A stretch of 44,950 bases of DNA from a virus. Its lineage: Duplodnaviria > Heunggongvirae > Uroviricota > Caudoviricetes. Position 1 is the stretch's first letter; every line of letters starts with the position of its first letter. A program made the translations under genes and the position numbers. The notes below the pieces were generated by a model. It did not search any database. It was not told the DNA's origin and worked only from the letters and a program-made list of their open reading frames with translations. Positions 1,532 through 17,781 of the stretch are shown here, piece by piece. The DNA is taken from the IMG/VR virus record IMGVR_UViG_2541047795_000004. The stretch is one strand, 5' to 3'.

Positions 1532-1741
1532 TTAATTTGAATACAATGCAATTCTCGAGGACTGAAGTTTCTCGCAATTAAAATTTATCAGTTTTACTTT
1601 CTGCTCTCTGGAAACGCCTGCTTCTTTTTTACCTGAGAGCATTTTTTCGCATTCTGATTTCGTTAGTTTAGATTTTGAATATCTTGTCCAGTTAGTAGGA
1701 GTGCCACCTTCCTTTTCAATAGTGGCGGTAATTTTATACAT
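1532..1741 (-). CDS. ydaC: Small hypothetical protein (YdaC-like), 69 aa
   Basis: ATG at 1741 preceded by GGAGGTG; start chosen inside the 93-aa ORF-track entry. Position between xis and lar matches the Rac layout as I recall it. Confidence 0.5.
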   Translation of the reverse strand: MYKITATIEKEGGTPTNWTRYSKSKLTKSECEKMLSGKKEAGVSREQKVKLINFNCEKLQSSRIALYSN

Positions 1742-2794: not shown

Positions 2795-5387
2795 TTGCAT
2801 ATTCCTTAGCCCAGCGGGGCAGTGATAATGTCTTAATAGCTGGCCATTCATCGGTATTCAGGCAGTCAGACAGGGTTCGCAGATTGCGGTGATATTCCTG
2901 TTGACCTGCCAGTTTTGCTTCTTCGCCCATCATGAAAATTTCAACCGGATAACGTCCGCATTCAATAGTTGTGCTGGCAACCAGAAAAACGAAAGTTGGC
3001 TGCACTCCAAACTGTGCTTCATAACCGTCACTGTAGAATGCATCCTGAACGTGATAGCGGTAGTCGTAATAAGCGGTTTTGAATCGTTGAATATCCGCCG
3101 TAGTTTTCACGTCCATGATCCAGTGAAATTCAGGGATAATTTTGTCCGGACGGCACCGACACAAAATTCCTGTTTCAGGATCTTTCCAGTAAATTGATGA
3201 TTCAGCGTGTCCGGCGCTTTCAACAAGCCATTGCCCCAGCGGCAAAGCCATAACGCTTTGATACATGAGTTCAATTTTCCGGCCTTCTTCCGCAGTGATA
3301 ACCGTTTTTCCTGTGCTTGCGCATTCCATCAGAAACGCTTTCTCTTCTTCTTTTCCGGCGTTTGTACGGCGGTTAAATTCAGGTGCTACGATAAAGCGGT
3401 TACTGAATTCTTCCGGTTCAAGTACCCGGCAGTGGAAAGCAGTTCCTAAATCGAGCGTTTTTGTCTTTGTGGTGTCCACGGGGGCATTTTTACGCCACAA
3501 ATATAGTGCCGGAGTATCAGCAATGTCATCGAGCTGAGACTTACTGATACCGGGACCCGCGTGGTAATTCTCATTCGAAATTCCGTAATAAATACCTGGC
3601 TCTATGTCTTCTACGATTACGGGATCTGCGACTTCGCCAGTTTCATCACTGCAATCGCGATGCGGATCGCTGCCAGCATTCTCATTGTGCGGATGTTCAG
3701 CGCCTTCCATTTCCTCCGGATCATTTTCCTTAGCTTCAACCTGACTCTCTTCATCGAATGTTTCCTGGTATGTTGCGTCGCCCATCACCGCACCACAGTC
3801 AGGGCAGTTATCCCCGCCAGTCTGGCCGCAGGCATTGCAGGCTATTTCCGGTTCCTGTTGCACTACTGGCTCAGGTTGATTCATATCTGGGCTGGTTTTT
3901 TCCGTTTCTGGCTGGTTCTGGTACACACAATCGCGAGTCTGGATCCCCTTTACCCATTTCGGATCGTTCGGGTCGCTAATTCCGTCAACAAATTCACCAC
4001 GTGATGCAGCAAGCAATTTATCGGCATCGACAGGATTTTTTGATGGAATGTTTTTCCGGGCTTCATGGAGTTCTGCCCGCAGTTCCTGATATTTCGCATC
4101 AACAGAATTTACCTGTGACTGAGCATCCAGCGGCTGCGTGTCCTGATGATGTTCAGTTGCGTCCGGTTCCATTGTTTCAGCCTCTCCCTGTTCAACTGCC
4201 GTTGTTCCAGATGGTTGCGGTTTTTCTTCATCATCCTGTTTTCCTTCTTCTGTTACTCGCTGCGGCATCGGGGCAGAGGAGCGACCGCAGGCAATATCCA
4301 CGATTTCCGGATCAGGGTTGGCATGATCGGTTTCAGTCAGTGCTTTGTTCAGATATTCAGTGACGTGCGCGGGGATGACCTCGATCCCAATTGGTGCTTC
4401 TTTTACGGACGCAACCACGATGGCGCGGGAATAATCCAGCCCGCCAGGCATGGTGATGAATTTGTCGCGGAAAACAGAAAAGGGCGGTTTATTTTCAGCG
4501 ATAATTTCCTCAATGCGTTTAGCGTGTGCCGGATGAAGGTTATAGATGTCCAGATCCATTGAACGGGCCAGTACGCCAGTGGCTACGTCGCGCGCCAGTG
4601 ACGTCAGATCGTGTACGAAACCTTCGCCGCGATCGGTGAGGTTTCCGCCGCCAGCATTAGCACCGGAAGCCGTGCGAGTGATGTGTGAAACACGATTACC
4701 CTTCATCCACTCTTTTGTCAGCAGTCCTCGATCGGTGTAGTCAGCGTTCAGGTATGCTTCGAAAAAAGCAGTTATCAGTCCCAGGTTTGAATTACCAGGA
4801 TTAGGGAAAACTTTGTCAGTGTCACGAACCAGTTTGTGGAGTTCGCGAATTTCCAGCGGGTCGAGCAGGCTGGTTTTGTGGGAAACAGCCAGGGCAGTAA
4901 CAGCCGGTAGTTCTTCAGCCCGAGCAATGTGTAATGCCTGGAGTCCGTCGCGTGAAACGTGCGTTACCGGTTTTTCGCTGCCGTGTTGAGCAAGCCAACG
5001 AATGGGCAGTTCCTGGCCAGAAATTGGGAGTAGCATATTCTCCTCAATCTCAGTCATGTCTTCGCCGTTGACGTTGGTATTGCCTTGATAGTGAGCGTTG
5101 TCTGGTGCTGCTCCCGGTTTTAGTTCCCATGTCATGGAGTCTTTGCTGAGTTGATAGCGTTCACTCCAGGTAAAATCGATCTCACCTTCAGCGGGCAGGT
5201 CATTAACGACAGGAAAATTCGTGGCAACAGCTTTAAAATAGCTGCTCAGTTTTTTACCTGACTTAACGATCAGGTAGTCCAGAGTGGCACAGGTCGATTC
5301 AAAATCGTTGCTTGCCCACAGGACGACGTCAGGTTCACCGGATGATTTTTTCGCTTTCCGTAACAGGAAGAGTGGTTTTGTGCTCAT
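2787..5387 (-). CDS. recE: RecE exonuclease VIII, 866 aa
   Basis: 866-aa ORF whose C-terminal region ([22 protein letters not shown]...) matches RecE as recalled; sits upstream of and overlaps recT. Confidence 0.93.
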
Positions 5388-11724: not shown

Positions 11725-11884
11725 GCCAAATTAATAATCGGAACTTGGTGAAGTGAAAGAGAAAGCATAACCCAAATCTGAATAATTAAATTCAGCACTG
11801 TGAATAAAATAGAGTCCTTAACCGGAGGAATTCCTGCACTCTCAAATCATCAGGAGGCCGCCCGAAAAGGCGGTGGAGATAATA

Positions 11885-12403
11885 ATGGAAATAACTAAAG
11901 AACGATTATTGGAAATAGCAAATCTTAGTGATGGGGCATTAAGTGATGGGAGAATTATTTCTCCTGATGCTTATGAATCAGTTACAAGTATAGAAATAAT
12001 AACGATGGCTAGGATGCTTCTTGCGCGATTCAAAAAAGAATATAAAAAACAGGTAGATAGCAATGCTAATATATATGATATTTTGGACGGTTGGGGAGCC
12101 TGGGCTGTAGCTGAAAATAGTTCTATTGATTGGCAGGAAATAGCTGATAAATATAAAAATGTTGTTCCTCATGGTAAAAAATCACGTCGTCAGTGCAGCA
12201 ATGATGAAGGGGGTATAATTGATACCTGCATGTTGAGGCTTAAACAATATAGGATAGATGACTATGAGTTAATTATCGCTCATTTTGTTATGGGAGTTTC
12301 ATTGCGTTGTTTAGCTAAGATAAACGAATGTTCAGATGGTAAAATAAGGAAAAAAATGCAAATGGCAATGGGATTTATTGCAGGTTGTATCTATTACCGT
12401 TGA
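11885..12403 (+). CDS. Q-like antiterminator paralog (QuuD/phage-82-type resemblance), AT-rich
   Basis: WGAW motif followed by a Cys-containing segment and a C-terminal helix, parallel to the Q gene at 16732; GGTGGAG Shine-Dalgarno before the ATG at 11885. Confidence 0.45.
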   Translation: MEITKERLLEIANLSDGALSDGRIISPDAYESVTSIEIITMARMLLARFKKEYKKQVDSNANIYDILDGWGAWAVAENSSIDWQEIADKYKNVVPHGKKSRRQCSNDEGGIIDTCMLRLKQYRIDDYELIIAHFVMGVSLRCLAKINECSDGKIRKKMQMAMGFIAGCIYYR

Positions 12404-12433
12404 TTTTTTAAGGCGAGTTTCTCTCGCCTTAAA

Positions 12434-13867
12434 TTAACTACAGTAACTATTGATTAAGTGAGAACTGAGCCAAGAGGTAATTGCATTCGTAGCATGTTCA
12501 TCAAGCATTGAGAATCCTAATATGATCATTATAAATGAAATCAGCAAAGTCAGAATCACAACGAATGTGGCTATAATCTGATAAGCTTTGTATGCTTCTC
12601 TTAATGGTGTGACTGCAAGATTCTCATAGTCAGTATCATCAAGAAAACCATATAGTTTATCTCTCCAGACTAGCCTAGTATTATCAAGTATCTTAAAGTA
12701 ATTTTTATTTATGAAGAGAGTTGTAACCTGAGATATAAAAATATATATAGATAACGCGAAGAACATATATGGGAATATGTTATTGGTTATATTAATCTTT
12801 GATGCGTCTAGCGCATATTTTATTGCAAATAGACTTATAACCAGAGCCAGATCTTTCCAAAGAGCGGATGTGATGTCTTTAGACTGACTTATTATTTTTT
12901 GCGTGTCTTCAGCTAAGGTTTTCCTTAGATCGGACAGAGATTTAATAGTCTCTCTGCTGCTAGCGCGAATGTGGGCCTTATATAGTAATTTTGCTGACTC
13001 AAAGGCCATAGGGAGTTTTTTTGGTAAACCCTCACAGAAGGATACATACTCTGGCCATTCTCGTGCTAACTCACTTGTGAAGAAAGTATGTTTGAGTTCA
13101 ATCTCATTGCCCTCAATAAAGATCCAGTTTATTACAGTTTGTAAAACTGAATAGTCGGAAAGCAGAATGTCTGGATCTCCATAAATTAATTTTTTTGGTG
13201 GCTTTCCAGTTAAACAAATTGATTTCTTTTCATCTGCTAATAATTCATTAACGAGAGTGCGACAAAGCATATTGCAGGAAACTTGTAACCATTTTTTGAA
13301 AAAGTTGTCCTCTGCCTCAGGCATTTTATAAAGTACCCAAGGAGCTATATCAGATGCAGGCATGAACTCACTAGAATAGAATTTAACGTAGCTCTGTAAA
13401 TTGATTGAAGTTCGTACGGTTTCATTAGATTCAATTTTTTCTGGAGCATGGTTCCATGGCTCAACAGAATATCCTAAAGTTTCAAATCCATGTTTCAAAC
13501 CGAGAATATTCACTTTATTGGTTATTGATACTAAATCATCATTGTGTAGAAAAACATTCCACCCTTCGAGCGTAAAAATATACCTGTTATTTTCGAATGC
13601 AATGCATTTTAGCGTAATGTTAAGTTTATCACCTTCACTGCATGACGATGGTTTTACTTCATCATTACAGTCATCTTTAACAGTAATTTCAATCCAATTT
13701 GGTACGTTTTCGTAAACGTACTGCCAAAGAATGAGTGCATCTTTGTCCATTTTGGCAGAAATTAGAACGCGCGCAGAATCATTTTTTATTGATTCTGATG
13801 CCAAAAATTCAGGGTCTTTCCTTGACGCCTGTATAGACTCATCGATTTTTTGAAGTATCGATGTCAT
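12434..13867 (-). CDS. Cassette gene B: uncharacterised 477-aa protein, large soluble N-terminal domain plus C-terminal transmembrane helices
   Basis: Hydrophobic helices IFPYMFFALSIYIFISQVTTLFI and IIATFVVILTLLISFIMIILGFSML near the C-terminus; GAGGA Shine-Dalgarno 10 nt before the ATG at 13867; overlaps gene A by 29 nt; AT-rich. Confidence 0.7.
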   Translation of the reverse strand: MTSILQKIDESIQASRKDPEFLASESIKNDSARVLISAKMDKDALILWQYVYENVPNWIEITVKDDCNDEVKPSSCSEGDKLNITLKCIAFENNRYIFTLEGWNVFLHNDDLVSITNKVNILGLKHGFETLGYSVEPWNHAPEKIESNETVRTSINLQSYVKFYSSEFMPASDIAPWVLYKMPEAEDNFFKKWLQVSCNMLCRTLVNELLADEKKSICLTGKPPKKLIYGDPDILLSDYSVLQTVINWIFIEGNEIELKHTFFTSELAREWPEYVSFCEGLPKKLPMAFESAKLLYKAHIRASSRETIKSLSDLRKTLAEDTQKIISQSKDITSALWKDLALVISLFAIKYALDASKINITNNIFPYMFFALSIYIFISQVTTLFINKNYFKILDNTRLVWRDKLYGFLDDTDYENLAVTPLREAYKAYQIIATFVVILTLLISFIMIILGFSMLDEHATNAITSWLSSHLINSYCS

Positions 13868-14897
13868 CAGTAATAATCCTCGCAGTAGTAACAATAATTT
13901 GTTTTCGCCCATCATCTAAGTTTCTTATTTCTGGACGGTCATCTTCATTATAACTAATTACTACACTTTCTGCAGTTTCAATTTTTCGTCTTGGTGGTTT
14001 ATGAATGCCATCTGCTTTTATAGTAAAGGATTCGCCTTCAATACCAGCATTTTTTGTTTGAGTTTTGAATGTGTTGAGAATTGGTGATTTTTCATCTAAC
14101 GGCCCAAAAATGCTGGTCAATAACGGAGAAGCATCTTCAGGATTATATTCGAAATCAGCTCTGCTTAAAACTTCATATATTTTATTTACGCCGCTTTTTT
14201 GAATTGACTCTGGCAATAATTCTTTATGCCTTTTGAAGGTTATTTTCAGCGCATCAATAAGCTTATTGCAAAGTTCAATTTCAGAGTTGACTCTTTTAAC
14301 ATTTAAGAAGCCTTTAAAATATCCTGAAATATTGGTTCTTTTACTCCTGTCTTTTACAATAACTTTCCCGCCTTTCCCACTTGGATCAAGTTGAATTAAC
14401 GCTATTTTTTGCATTGCCTCAGCTTTTTTTACGAAAGTTTCATGAAATCTTTCTAAAGTAGGCATTTGTTCTTCAGATAACTTTTCGTCAAGAACATAAC
14501 GAACCACATCTTCATTATCGTATTTTATAATTGCATAGAATTTTTCCTTATCTGAAACCAATTCAAATAAGAAAAAGCATCCCATACTCGTGTTACCGCT
14601 AGAATGGTGTGACTGAAAATCACTGGCCAGTAGCTTCGATTGTTCTGTAAAACAATTAGCTTCAGCATCTGCTTTATCTCTAATGATACGCAGGATTCTT
14701 TCGGTATTTGAATTCTCCAGAAAAGTGAAAAGATTTCCTTTCAGTGAAGATTTGATACGTTCAAGAAAAAAATCCACATGCTGAACTGGTTTTATTTCTT
14801 TGAGAAGTGTCGGTGCTTCAAGATTCTTACCTACAACGTGAAAGATCATTTTATTAATGACTAAATTTTGTACGTCTTGTTCAGAAAGGAAACTCAT
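13839..14897 (-). CDS. Cassette gene A: uncharacterised 352-aa cytoplasmic protein, tentative weak resemblance to NA37/YejK-type nucleoid-associated proteins
   Basis: GGAG Shine-Dalgarno before the ATG at 14897; no transmembrane segment; the NA37 resemblance is by eye only and unverified. Confidence 0.7.
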   Translation of the reverse strand: MSFLSEQDVQNLVINKMIFHVVGKNLEAPTLLKEIKPVQHVDFFLERIKSSLKGNLFTFLENSNTERILRIIRDKADAEANCFTEQSKLLASDFQSHHSSGNTSMGCFFLFELVSDKEKFYAIIKYDNEDVVRYVLDEKLSEEQMPTLERFHETFVKKAEAMQKIALIQLDPSGKGGKVIVKDRSKRTNISGYFKGFLNVKRVNSEIELCNKLIDALKITFKRHKELLPESIQKSGVNKIYEVLSRADFEYNPEDASPLLTSIFGPLDEKSPILNTFKTQTKNAGIEGESFTIKADGIHKPPRRKIETAESVVISYNEDDRPEIRNLDDGRKQIIVTTARIITDDIDTSKNR

Positions 14898-15226
14898 CCT
14901 GACTCCATAATCAAGCAGATTAGAACTATGACTAGTCTAGTATATGCATCTTTTGGTGCGTACGCAAAAGTTCTTAAACTCAAAATGTTATCGCGGATAG
15001 ATCTTTGTAGAGTCAGTGATTGGCGCAGGTAGGTGGTAACAGCAGACAAATAGCTGCGGATACTTGAGGCTATCTGCCTCGGGCATGAACATCAAAGGCA
15101 GATAGAGAAAAGCCCCAGTTAACATTACGCATCCGGCAAGACGCTTAACATTAATCTGAGGCCAATTTCATGCTTTGCACATGTAGGTTAGCCTCTTACG
15201 TGCCGAAAGGCAAGGAGAAGCAGGCT

Positions 15227-15382
15227 ATGAAGCAGCAAAAGGCGATGTTAGTCGCCCTGATCGTCATCTGTTTAACCGTTATAGTGACGGTACTGGTAAC
15301 GAGGAAAGACCTCTGCGAGGTACGAATCCGAACCGACCAGACGGAGGTCGCTGTCTTCACAGCTTACGAACTTGGGGAGTAA
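15227..15382 (+). CDS. hok: Hok/Gef-family type I toxin, 51 aa
   Basis: MKQQKAMLVALIVICLTVIVTVLVTRKDLCEVRIRTDQTEVAVFTAYE is a Hok-family sequence with one transmembrane helix; a 7-bp stem-loop follows at about 15389-15407. Confidence 0.8.
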   Translation: MKQQKAMLVALIVICLTVIVTVLVTRKDLCEVRIRTDQTEVAVFTAYELGE

Positions 15383-15845
15383 GAGGACCGGCGGGGAGAA
15401 ATCCCCGCAACCTCTGATGTATTATGCATCCTCAACGCAGCCACAGTTAACCTGATTGGCGGGTTTATTTCATCTGTAAATATATTTATAAAAATAATGC
15501 CCACGCACAGCATAAAACAAAAAGTATTACAGATAAAAAAGGAACGTAATGTGCAGATTTGTTGTTTTCCATATTTACTCACCTTAATATGATTAACCCT
15601 GATAGGGTTGTTATTTCAGCGGTTTTCAAATGAGATATTATGGTGATCTGACAAATTTGCATAACATTAAAATTTAATTTGTTTAACCGCTTTTAATAAT
15701 AAGCGTTGTTTGTATCCCAGCAATCTGTTGTTTGGTTTTTATTCCATTAAGGTGGGGGCTTTACACTGGAGCCAGTTTATTTATACTTCATACGTCAGCC
15801 TGAACAACTGGCATCTGCTGCGCTGCGCCATCGAGAGATTGAGAA

Positions 15846-17627: not shown

Positions 17628-17703
<76 letters not shown>

Positions 17704-17706
17704 TAT

Positions 17707-17781
<75 letters not shown>

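Follow-up and report, generated by a model that had tools for sequence, protein, structure and literature searches.

The hok/sok locus is a textbook type I toxin-antitoxin system. Its mechanistic paradigm is the hok/mok/sok locus (parB) of plasmid R1, a proven killer of plasmid-free segregants. In the canonical mechanism, which was shown for R1 and would be expected to apply by inference to the prophage locus described here, pairing of the two ends of the full-length mRNA (tac with fbi) would keep this RNA inactive, with ucb hiding the ribosome-binding site of mok. Slow trimming of the 3' end down to a hairpin would then free tac, which would capture ucb and expose the mok site. The mok SD/dcb hairpin expected to form at this stage would be both the ribosome entry site and the target of Sok. 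Pairing of Sok at the mok site would lead to cleavage of the hok mRNA by RNase III, and once Sok is gone, mok and hok would be translated and Hok would damage the inner membrane.

The hokW-mokW-sokW locus of phage 933W and of the Sakai prophage Sp5 (AF125520) was established by experiment as a type I system requiring both RNase III and Hfq (Takada et al. 2021, PMC8621323). Its toxin is neutralized by SokW, and deletion halves the release of Sp5 after mitomycin C treatment (PMC8621323). HokW, a close relative of the toxin described here, is 44% identical to Hok of R1 (PMC8621323). A survey found hok to be enriched in prophages (bioRxiv 10.1101/2025.08.07.668861). Among the chromosomal loci, hokA, hokC, and hokE are reported to be inactivated by IS elements and others by rearrangement (Pedersen and Gerdes 1999, as cited in PMC12214031), and the chromosomal hok loci tested to date mediated no killing (bioRxiv 10.1101/2025.08.07.668861; PMC12214031). 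The hokD gene of K-12, in the Qin prophage, is retained from the hok Shine-Dalgarno sequence (SD) onward only and is fused to relBE, without leader, mok, and sok. The hok family is thus documented, as are its occurrence in prophages, the in-frame position of mok in this lineage, and decay among the chromosomal copies.

A hok-mok-sok locus in a Rac-like prophage

The DNA analyzed here (the window; IMG/VR record IMGVR_UViG_2541047795_000004, 44,950 nucleotides) belongs to a Rac-like lambdoid prophage of Escherichia coli, with the RalA sRNA, sieB, ydaF, ydaT, ydaV, essD/rrrD/rzpD, and trkG as markers. The 501 nucleotides at 15000-15500 are identical in strain Ecol_316, where the annotated neighbors are sieB, ydaF, ydaT, ydaV, a Q-family antiterminator, lysis genes, trkG, and a terminase. 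This 501-nucleotide region was matched in 4,722 of the 5,426 complete E. coli genomes. The hok locus lies in the early-region/Q accessory part of the prophage, adjoining a foreign cassette; a previous reading of the letters alone (here, the sequence-only reading) had placed it in an accessory hotspot of the prophage next to a candidate cassette. The position of hokW is different: a search of the early region of Sp5 on the Sakai chromosome did not find it, and it lies close to the right end of the phage genome.

The sequence-only reading had called the 51-codon open reading frame at 15227-15382 (plus strand) a Hok/Gef membrane toxin with an in-frame upstream extension and a 3' stem-loop, and all three were recovered. 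The 51-residue product (MKQQKAMLVALIVICLTVIVTVLVTRKDLCEVRIRTDQTEVAVFTAYELGE; SD AAGGAG at 15212-15217) matches Pfam PF01848 (HOK_GEF) with an E value of 1.1e-21 and 76.5 bits against a cutoff of 22, covering profile positions 1 to 42 of 42, and corresponds to the RefSeq entry WP_197731663.1 ("Hok/Gef family protein"). Members of the family have a cysteine in the helix and one in the periplasmic tail, with a second tail cysteine that is either encoded in the DNA or obtained by A-to-I editing of a TAC codon. The product has the expected length (about 50 residues), a hydrophobic N-terminal helix (residues 6-24), and Cys15 and Cys30. Its Tyr47 codon is TAC followed by G (15365-15368), a possible context for A-to-I editing, and the same arrangement is found at the equivalent tyrosine codon of hokC/D/E (PMC12214031). 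The toxin differs from HokW at five residues.

The upstream ATG at 15170 opens a mok frame of 70 codons (15170-15382, plus strand) with its own SD (GAGG, 15158-15161). This frame is coterminal and in frame with hok, as annotated for mokW in AF125520, and unlike that of R1, where mok is out of frame with hok (AUG at 116 versus 174). The stem-loop at 15383-15414 (plus strand) consists of GCGGGGA-GAAA-UCCCCGC within GAGG/CCUC (−19.1 kcal/mol; z = −4.7). It would be expected to block 3' exonucleases and to set the 3' end of the truncated, active mRNA, the function described for the equivalent R1 hairpin (PMC9841398). Alignment to 933W hokW, to hokD-type loci, and to R1 predicts a full-length hok (mok-hok) mRNA at 15058-15442 (plus strand), from the +1 of the family to the end of fbi; the fold of the whole transcript has a z score of −4.2. 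A terminator-like hairpin with a T-run follows 3' of fbi (15449-15475, plus strand). No damage is seen in the hok and mok frames, in the two ribosome-binding sites, in the 3' hairpin, or in fbi, an observation that in itself speaks against attenuation.

The window is about 90% identical in nucleotides to the hokW locus over 15058-15442. The two loci have in common a Hok of 51 residues, an in-frame Mok of 70, a Sok of 71 nucleotides, and a lambdoid prophage home, as well as an identical Sok promoter stretch, an extended loop in the Sok/target hairpin, the 3' hairpin, and the position of fbi. The closest sequences are intact hokD-type (relF) loci found in many E. coli strains, which are 96% identical from 15063 onward. 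They have the same fbi variant as the window (GCAGCC) and the same downstream genes (DUF1367-DUF1364-DUF1133), and therefore occupy the same prophage position. The segment encoding the 5' tail of Sok resembles that of a subgroup with L019 and RM9131 rather than that of hokD. The R1 locus is more distant but shows the same order of elements (tac, ucb, Sok target, mok SD/dcb, hok SD hairpin, 3' hairpin, and fbi). An R1-type locus belongs to the same Rfam family (88.9 bits) and has its Sok promoter at the same place as the window; in R1, the Sok/target hairpin is without the extended loop and tac is GGCGCUUGAGG. It is near certain that the window carries, by descent, a hok-mok-sok type I toxin-antitoxin module of the hokD/hokW lineage.

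The Rfam match and the leader fold

The covariance-model search that the sequence-only reading had proposed as a check matched Rfam family RF01794 ("sok antitoxin"; gathering score, 59) at 15058-15232 with 99.4 bits (E = 1.9e-21). The match is on the plus strand, starts at the hok mRNA +1 of the family, and the consensus of the model ends with the hok SD and AUG. The same hok-sense orientation and the same extent, from the hok +1 to the hok AUG, were found in all 12 reference loci, including 933W hokW and the R1-type plasmid, even though the real Sok is known to be antisense in both of these. The match in the window and in the 12 references therefore confirms the fold of a hok leader and not an antisense RNA. 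What RF01794 models is the open form of the hok mRNA leader, with the tac/ucb stem, the Sok-target hairpin, the mok SD/dcb hairpin, and the hok SD hairpin. Weak matches in the region to mir-7360 and ZEB2_AS1 (E values of 3 to 5) were discarded as noise.

The structure of the leader was tested in an alignment (A3) of 35 loci from six genera, phages, and R1. The cells of this alignment were paired in 73.9% of the cases, against 35 to 43% with slid partners, and 17 pairs showed changes on both sides. The RF01794 score of the window is 12 to 18 bits under those of its close relatives (111 to 117 bits), in part because of two pairs of the tac stem (3:76 and 5:75) that cmscan flags as noncanonical.

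The Sok antisense RNA

An antisense RNA had been predicted on the minus strand over the leader, at roughly 15100-15230, and a putative Sok homolog indeed falls there, at 15108-15178, with its promoter extending to 15213. Its length of 71 nucleotides is given by homology to sokW (a misc_RNA in AF125520), and alignment and folding agree on its shape: a single-stranded 5' tail of 15 nucleotides (15178-15164), a long hairpin (15163-15111), and a U-tail (−26.8 kcal/mol; z = −4.3), as in SokW. Compensatory changes occur at 5 of the 10 pairs of the Sok/target hairpin across the 35 loci. The putative promoter (15213-15185, minus strand) has TTGCCT at −35 (15213-15208), a spacer of 17 nucleotides, and TAACCT at −10 (15190-15185), for a start at 15178; it is the top promoter-like site of the minus strand (weight-matrix score, 8.3). 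The stretch at 15179-15229, which includes this promoter, is identical to that of 933W. Published primers and probes for hokW/sokW have exact or nearly exact matches in the window, and probe YO-597 and the mutagenesis primers (PMC8621323) locate the −10 of sokW at the −10 found here. Sok is probably still transcribed from the window.

The target of Sok, the mok SD/dcb hairpin (15158-15195, plus strand), joins the mok SD to dcb (GCCUC, 15191-15195) and exposes a CUUUGCA loop opposite the 5' end of Sok (−12.4 kcal/mol). It corresponds to helix 4 of the Rfam-derived structure, and its base pairs are invariant in all 35 sequences. Within the leader, paralogs differ most in the 5' tail of Sok: that of the window differs from that of SokW at 7 of about 20 positions, which makes cross-regulation between them unlikely.

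Loss of the hok promoter at a cassette junction

The homology to other hok loci ends at about 15049, inside the hok promoter. An AT-rich, two-gene cassette on the minus strand lies directly upstream, in an island (about 30 to 37% GC, compared with about 49% in hok) that contains a Q-family gene, an open reading frame of 493 codons, and an NA37-like gene of 352 codons. The product of the first of these two neighbors had no match in Pfam or PADLOC, and that of the second matched only NA37. What is left of the hok promoter (15020-15051, plus strand) consists of a −35-like TTGGCG (15020-15025), a spacer of 20 nucleotides, and ACAAAT (15046-15051) at the −10 position. This position (−12 to −7) reads TAnnnT in 40 of 41 relatives, and the promoter of the closest ones, the intact hokD-type loci, is TTGGCG-17-TAGAAT; hokW likewise has an intact TAGAAT. 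The sigma-70 weight-matrix scores at the homologous position are −5.7 to −7 for the window, +12.0 for the closest relatives, and +7.5 for R1. By these models, the window would lack a working hok promoter directly 5' of tac.

A consensus scan of the plus strand between 14900 and 15100 yielded no replacement sigma-70 promoter. The best weight-matrix site upstream of hok, a weak TTGGTG-16-TAAACT at 14953-14980, scored 7.6, which is within the background (median, 5.6; 90th percentile, 9.05). The junction variant is present in 29 of the 5,426 E. coli genomes (blastn with the junction), all at 99% identity or above, and since these carriers are nearly identical, their conservation is uninformative about selection. 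The locus resembles the inactivated chromosomal hok loci in having an intact-looking toxin gene with damaged regulatory or expression elements, but the lesion is of another kind: a junction with a foreign cassette that removed the −10 and altered tac, and not an IS insertion or a large deletion.

An altered mRNA switch

The translational activator element tac (15058-15069, plus strand) reads GGAUACUUGAGG in the window and GGG(U/C)GCUUGAG(G/A) in its relatives, which come from Escherichia, Kluyvera, Photorhabdus, Pantoea, Citrobacter, Erwinia, phages, and R1. Its first six bases are GGAUAC, against GGGYGC in 40 of 41 relatives; both hokW and the intact hokD-type loci keep GGGUGC. The two changes, G3A (A15060) and G5A (A15062), are lineage specific and affect nearly invariant positions (G in 41 of 42 relatives at G3 and in 42 of 42 at G5, with one R1 alignment offset). 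We considered that the locus might be a chimera that had received a GGAUAC tac from another hok lineage with a co-varying ucb or fbi, but no such lineage was found: blastn with the junction gave only the 29 near-identical E. coli genomes, and an exact-pattern scan of IMG/VR for the GGAUAC tac returned the same configuration only, along with unrelated chance matches.

Neither partner of tac compensates for these changes. The first, ucb (the anti-SD box; 15108-15118, plus strand; AAAAGCCCCAG), which is predicted in the folds to pair with 15156-15162 over the mok SD in the closed form, lies in invariant alignment columns and is unchanged in the window, so that the tac changes are uncompensated there. 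Pairs 3:76 and 5:75 of the tac/ucb stem are A.C in the window and G-C in the 34 other sequences, and the window is the only one of the 35 sequences of alignment A3 that is unpaired at both. The activating stem is damaged, with 5 of its 7 pairs kept. The tac/ucb hairpin has a predicted energy of −19.0 kcal/mol in the window, −26.7 when both G residues are restored, and −26.8 in hokW. The second partner, the fold-back inhibitory element fbi (15430-15442, plus strand; CCUCAACGCAGCC), would pair with tac in the full-length mRNA and offers no compensation for G3A/G5A either. When nucleotides 1-13 were paired with the 3' region using RNAduplex, the fbi site was recovered in the window and, for most relatives, its homolog was recovered as well. 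The duplex is worth −9.3 kcal/mol in the window, with 7 of 12 pairs kept, against −16.8 to −25.6 in 41 of 42 relatives, the exception (L050) being itself degenerate; in hokW the tac/fbi helix is perfect (−21.5 kcal/mol). Across genera the two elements co-vary (GGGUGC with GCACCC, GGGCGC with GCGCCC, GAGA with UCUC, and U4:A to C4:G).

One of the two changes has been studied in R1. A15062 aligns with G4 of R1, whose numbering we verified on the R1-type plasmid, and any substitution at G4, C5, or U6 of R1 abolishes toxicity (Le Rhun et al., PMC9841398). In the R1 G4A mutant both forms of the mRNA are present and the Hok protein is drastically reduced, because the tac stem no longer frees the mok SD (PMC9841398); the R1 leader in which this was obtained is only about 60 to 65% identical to that of the window. 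Constrained-ensemble calculations on the truncated mRNA put the open-minus-closed difference at +4.4 kcal/mol in the window, at +1.2 once tac is restored, and at +2.0 and +6.0 in the R1 and R1 G4A controls, values that are supportive but model dependent; the value for HannyBb, for which the 3' end was set wrongly, is disregarded. Plain minimum-free-energy folds of the truncated mRNA were closed even with tac restored; they do not discriminate between the two states, which leaves the thermodynamic argument soft.

A probably attenuated module

The sequence-only reading had described a lethal gene under RNA control. Its identification as hok/sok stands, but the lethality has become doubtful, since the −10 is destroyed and two G residues of tac are changed to A. 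On balance, we take the locus to be most likely a hok/sok module in decay, with its toxin attenuated, and not an armed killer. The models of promoter and leader make it rather likely that this copy still produces Sok and that its toxin arm is attenuated or silent. With its native −10 lost, the locus would be expected to give little hok mRNA from its own promoter, and any hok mRNA that is made would mostly stay in the closed, untranslatable form owing to the uncompensated G3A/G5A changes in tac.

A fully functional module, in which Hok is made when Sok decays and which either stabilizes the prophage by post-segregational killing or speeds up lysis and release as hokW/sokW does in Sp5, is possible but doubtful. 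All the coding elements and most of the RNA elements are intact, and the sequence between the start site of Sok and the start codon of hok does not differ from that of hokW, the 90%-identical locus for which toxicity, neutralization by Sok, and an effect on phage release were demonstrated (PMC8621323). The prophage has genes for lysis and packaging. Moreover, hok and the early rightward operon point in the same direction, so that read-through on induction could transcribe hok without a promoter of its own, and a transcript extended at its 5' end would, by prediction, still form a fold-back helix (GCUGCG at 15053-15058 with CGCAGC at 15436-15441). Against this, such a read-through RNA would have no free tac end at its 5' side, and the loss of the −10 would remain. 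Two nearly invariant tac residues are changed without compensation, one of them being the loss-of-function change of R1, and the helices that tac forms with its two partners are both clear outliers among 42 loci. The absence of killing by the chromosomal hok loci tested so far (bioRxiv 10.1101/2025.08.07.668861; PMC12214031) also speaks against an active toxin.

A different role for the locus, which we regard as unlikely, would be that of an orphan antitoxin: the toxin would be dead, and Sok would be retained against the hok mRNAs of incoming phages, plasmids, or sibling prophages, as an anti-addiction or immunity function. This would fit the contrast between the intact promoter and fold of Sok and the damaged hok promoter and tac, and the variability of the Sok tail between paralogs is as it would be for specificity groups. 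The same Sok 5' tail and target (GGCCAAUUUCAUGCUUUGC) occur in other hok loci of E. coli and Shigella, and 340 E. coli records match 15105-15200 at 95 to 99% identity; among the matches listed at 99.0%, most are STEC. Yet the siblings with the same tail that we examined are themselves disarmed, RM9131 by an IS1203 inside hok and L019 by an 11-nucleotide deletion in the promoter spacer, and there may thus be nothing to neutralize; one sibling contig of IMG/VR has lost fbi. Chromosomal Sok RNAs showed no cross-talk with R1 hok (PMC9841398). Finally, Sok and the hok leader are encoded by the same DNA, and the retention of Sok may reflect nothing more than a recent lesion.

In an extension of this idea, which we consider improbable and offer as speculation, the gain of the AT-rich cassette would have disarmed hok and left Sok expressed as an immunity RNA against competitors whose hok has the same target. 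The 5' edge of hok would then be a recurrent boundary of cargo exchange in lambdoid phages and the silencing of the toxin a selected by-product. A chance resemblance, with no toxin-antitoxin locus present, has nothing but the small size of the open reading frame in its favor and was rejected as extremely improbable on the basis of Pfam (E = 1e-21), Rfam (E = 2e-21), the alignment to 933W, and the 90 to 96% identity to studied hok loci over about 400 nucleotides.

Implications for the annotation of hok loci

Beyond correct annotation, the significance of this locus is small, since a 90%-identical prophage copy has already been characterized experimentally; what is new is a small detail, the specific lesion at the junction. 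Because the Rfam "sok" family matches the hok-sense strand and covers the entire leader, an automatic annotation with Rfam would put the antitoxin of such loci on the wrong strand and give it the wrong length. The right edge of the foreign cassette coincides exactly with the lesion, which thereby marks the boundary of that cassette. An intact hok reading frame is not equivalent to an armed toxin: with the promoter and the tac switch both damaged, the reading frame alone does not justify scoring this region of the prophage as the carrier of a lethal gene.

Sibling loci and the ends of the hok mRNA

Sibling loci that share an identical or nearly identical Sok 5' tail are each disarmed, and the lesion is different in each of them. 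In E. coli RM9131 (2950-4600 of its locus), IS1203 is inserted at about hok codon 13, while the promoter and tac, the activator element at the 5' end of the hok mRNA, are intact. A second locus, L019 (1290-1340), has a hok promoter spacer shortened by an 11-nt deletion, and an IMG/VR contig (L070) carries foreign DNA beyond the position equivalent to 15404 of the window, thereby losing fbi, the fold-back inhibitory element at the 3' end of the mRNA. In the window itself, CGCAGC (15436-15441) within the hokD-type fbi variant has a complementary motif, GCUGCG (15053-15058), just 5' of the family's +1. The predicted fold of a putative 5'-extended hok transcript uses this GCUGCG/CGCAGC helix, with a 5-nt bulge.

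The Rfam model RF01794 ("sok antitoxin") has the orientation of the hok sense strand and covers the whole hok leader (157 positions). Its match was on the hok strand in all loci tested, i.e., the window (15058-15232, plus strand), the reference loci L005 and L073, and 10 others, the R1-type and 933W loci included. Automatic annotation based on RF01794 would thus assign the antitoxin to the wrong strand.

Genomic neighborhood of hok

A low-GC island (about 11750-15050, 30 to 37% GC) lies upstream of hok, and its right edge is the site of the destroyed hok promoter. It contains a Phage_antitermQ gene (11873-12403, plus strand) and, on the minus strand, a 493-aa ORF without Pfam or PADLOC match (12434-13915) and the gene of an NA37-like nucleoid-associated protein of 352 aa (13839-14897). 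This NA37-like pair (12434-14897) fills the slot directly upstream of hok, where the cargo, mostly encoded on the minus strand, differs among lambdoid phages. In phage Tritos, the slot encodes a hypothetical protein of 444 aa (1042-2376 of L007), and in RM9131 it encodes sce7726-family and "beta family" proteins (930-2565 of L074). These differences suggest a variable cargo site with hok as its boundary.

On the 3' side of hok is a second antiterminator-like module (DUF1367/DUF1364/DUF1133), and the roughly 370 nt that separate hok from the DUF1367 gene (15476-15845) are AT-rich. No convincing ORF or Rfam match was found in this stretch. On the plus strand, it contains one promoter-like and one terminator-like site (15566-15593 and 15594-15610, respectively). 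In other phages, rem or small ORFs occupy the equivalent place. Two tRNA genes, Thr and Gly (17628-17700 and 17707-17778, plus strand), annotated in the identical RefSeq record, follow the antiterminator module and precede the lysis genes, a position typical for lambdoid late regions.

A second RNA-controlled toxin locus and possible editing of the hok mRNA

The window also carries a full-length RalA small RNA (1557-1735, plus strand; Rfam RF02694, 225 bits). RalA acts as antitoxin in the type I pair RalR/RalA, and its presence alongside hok/sok therefore reveals a second RNA-controlled toxin locus in the same prophage. In hok, the Tyr47 codon is TAC and is followed by G (15365-15368, plus strand), which is the context of TadA A-to-I editing, changing Tyr to Cys, in the hokC, hokD, and hokE mRNAs (PMC12214031). 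If such editing applies to the hok of the window, it would be a further layer of control, required for full toxicity.
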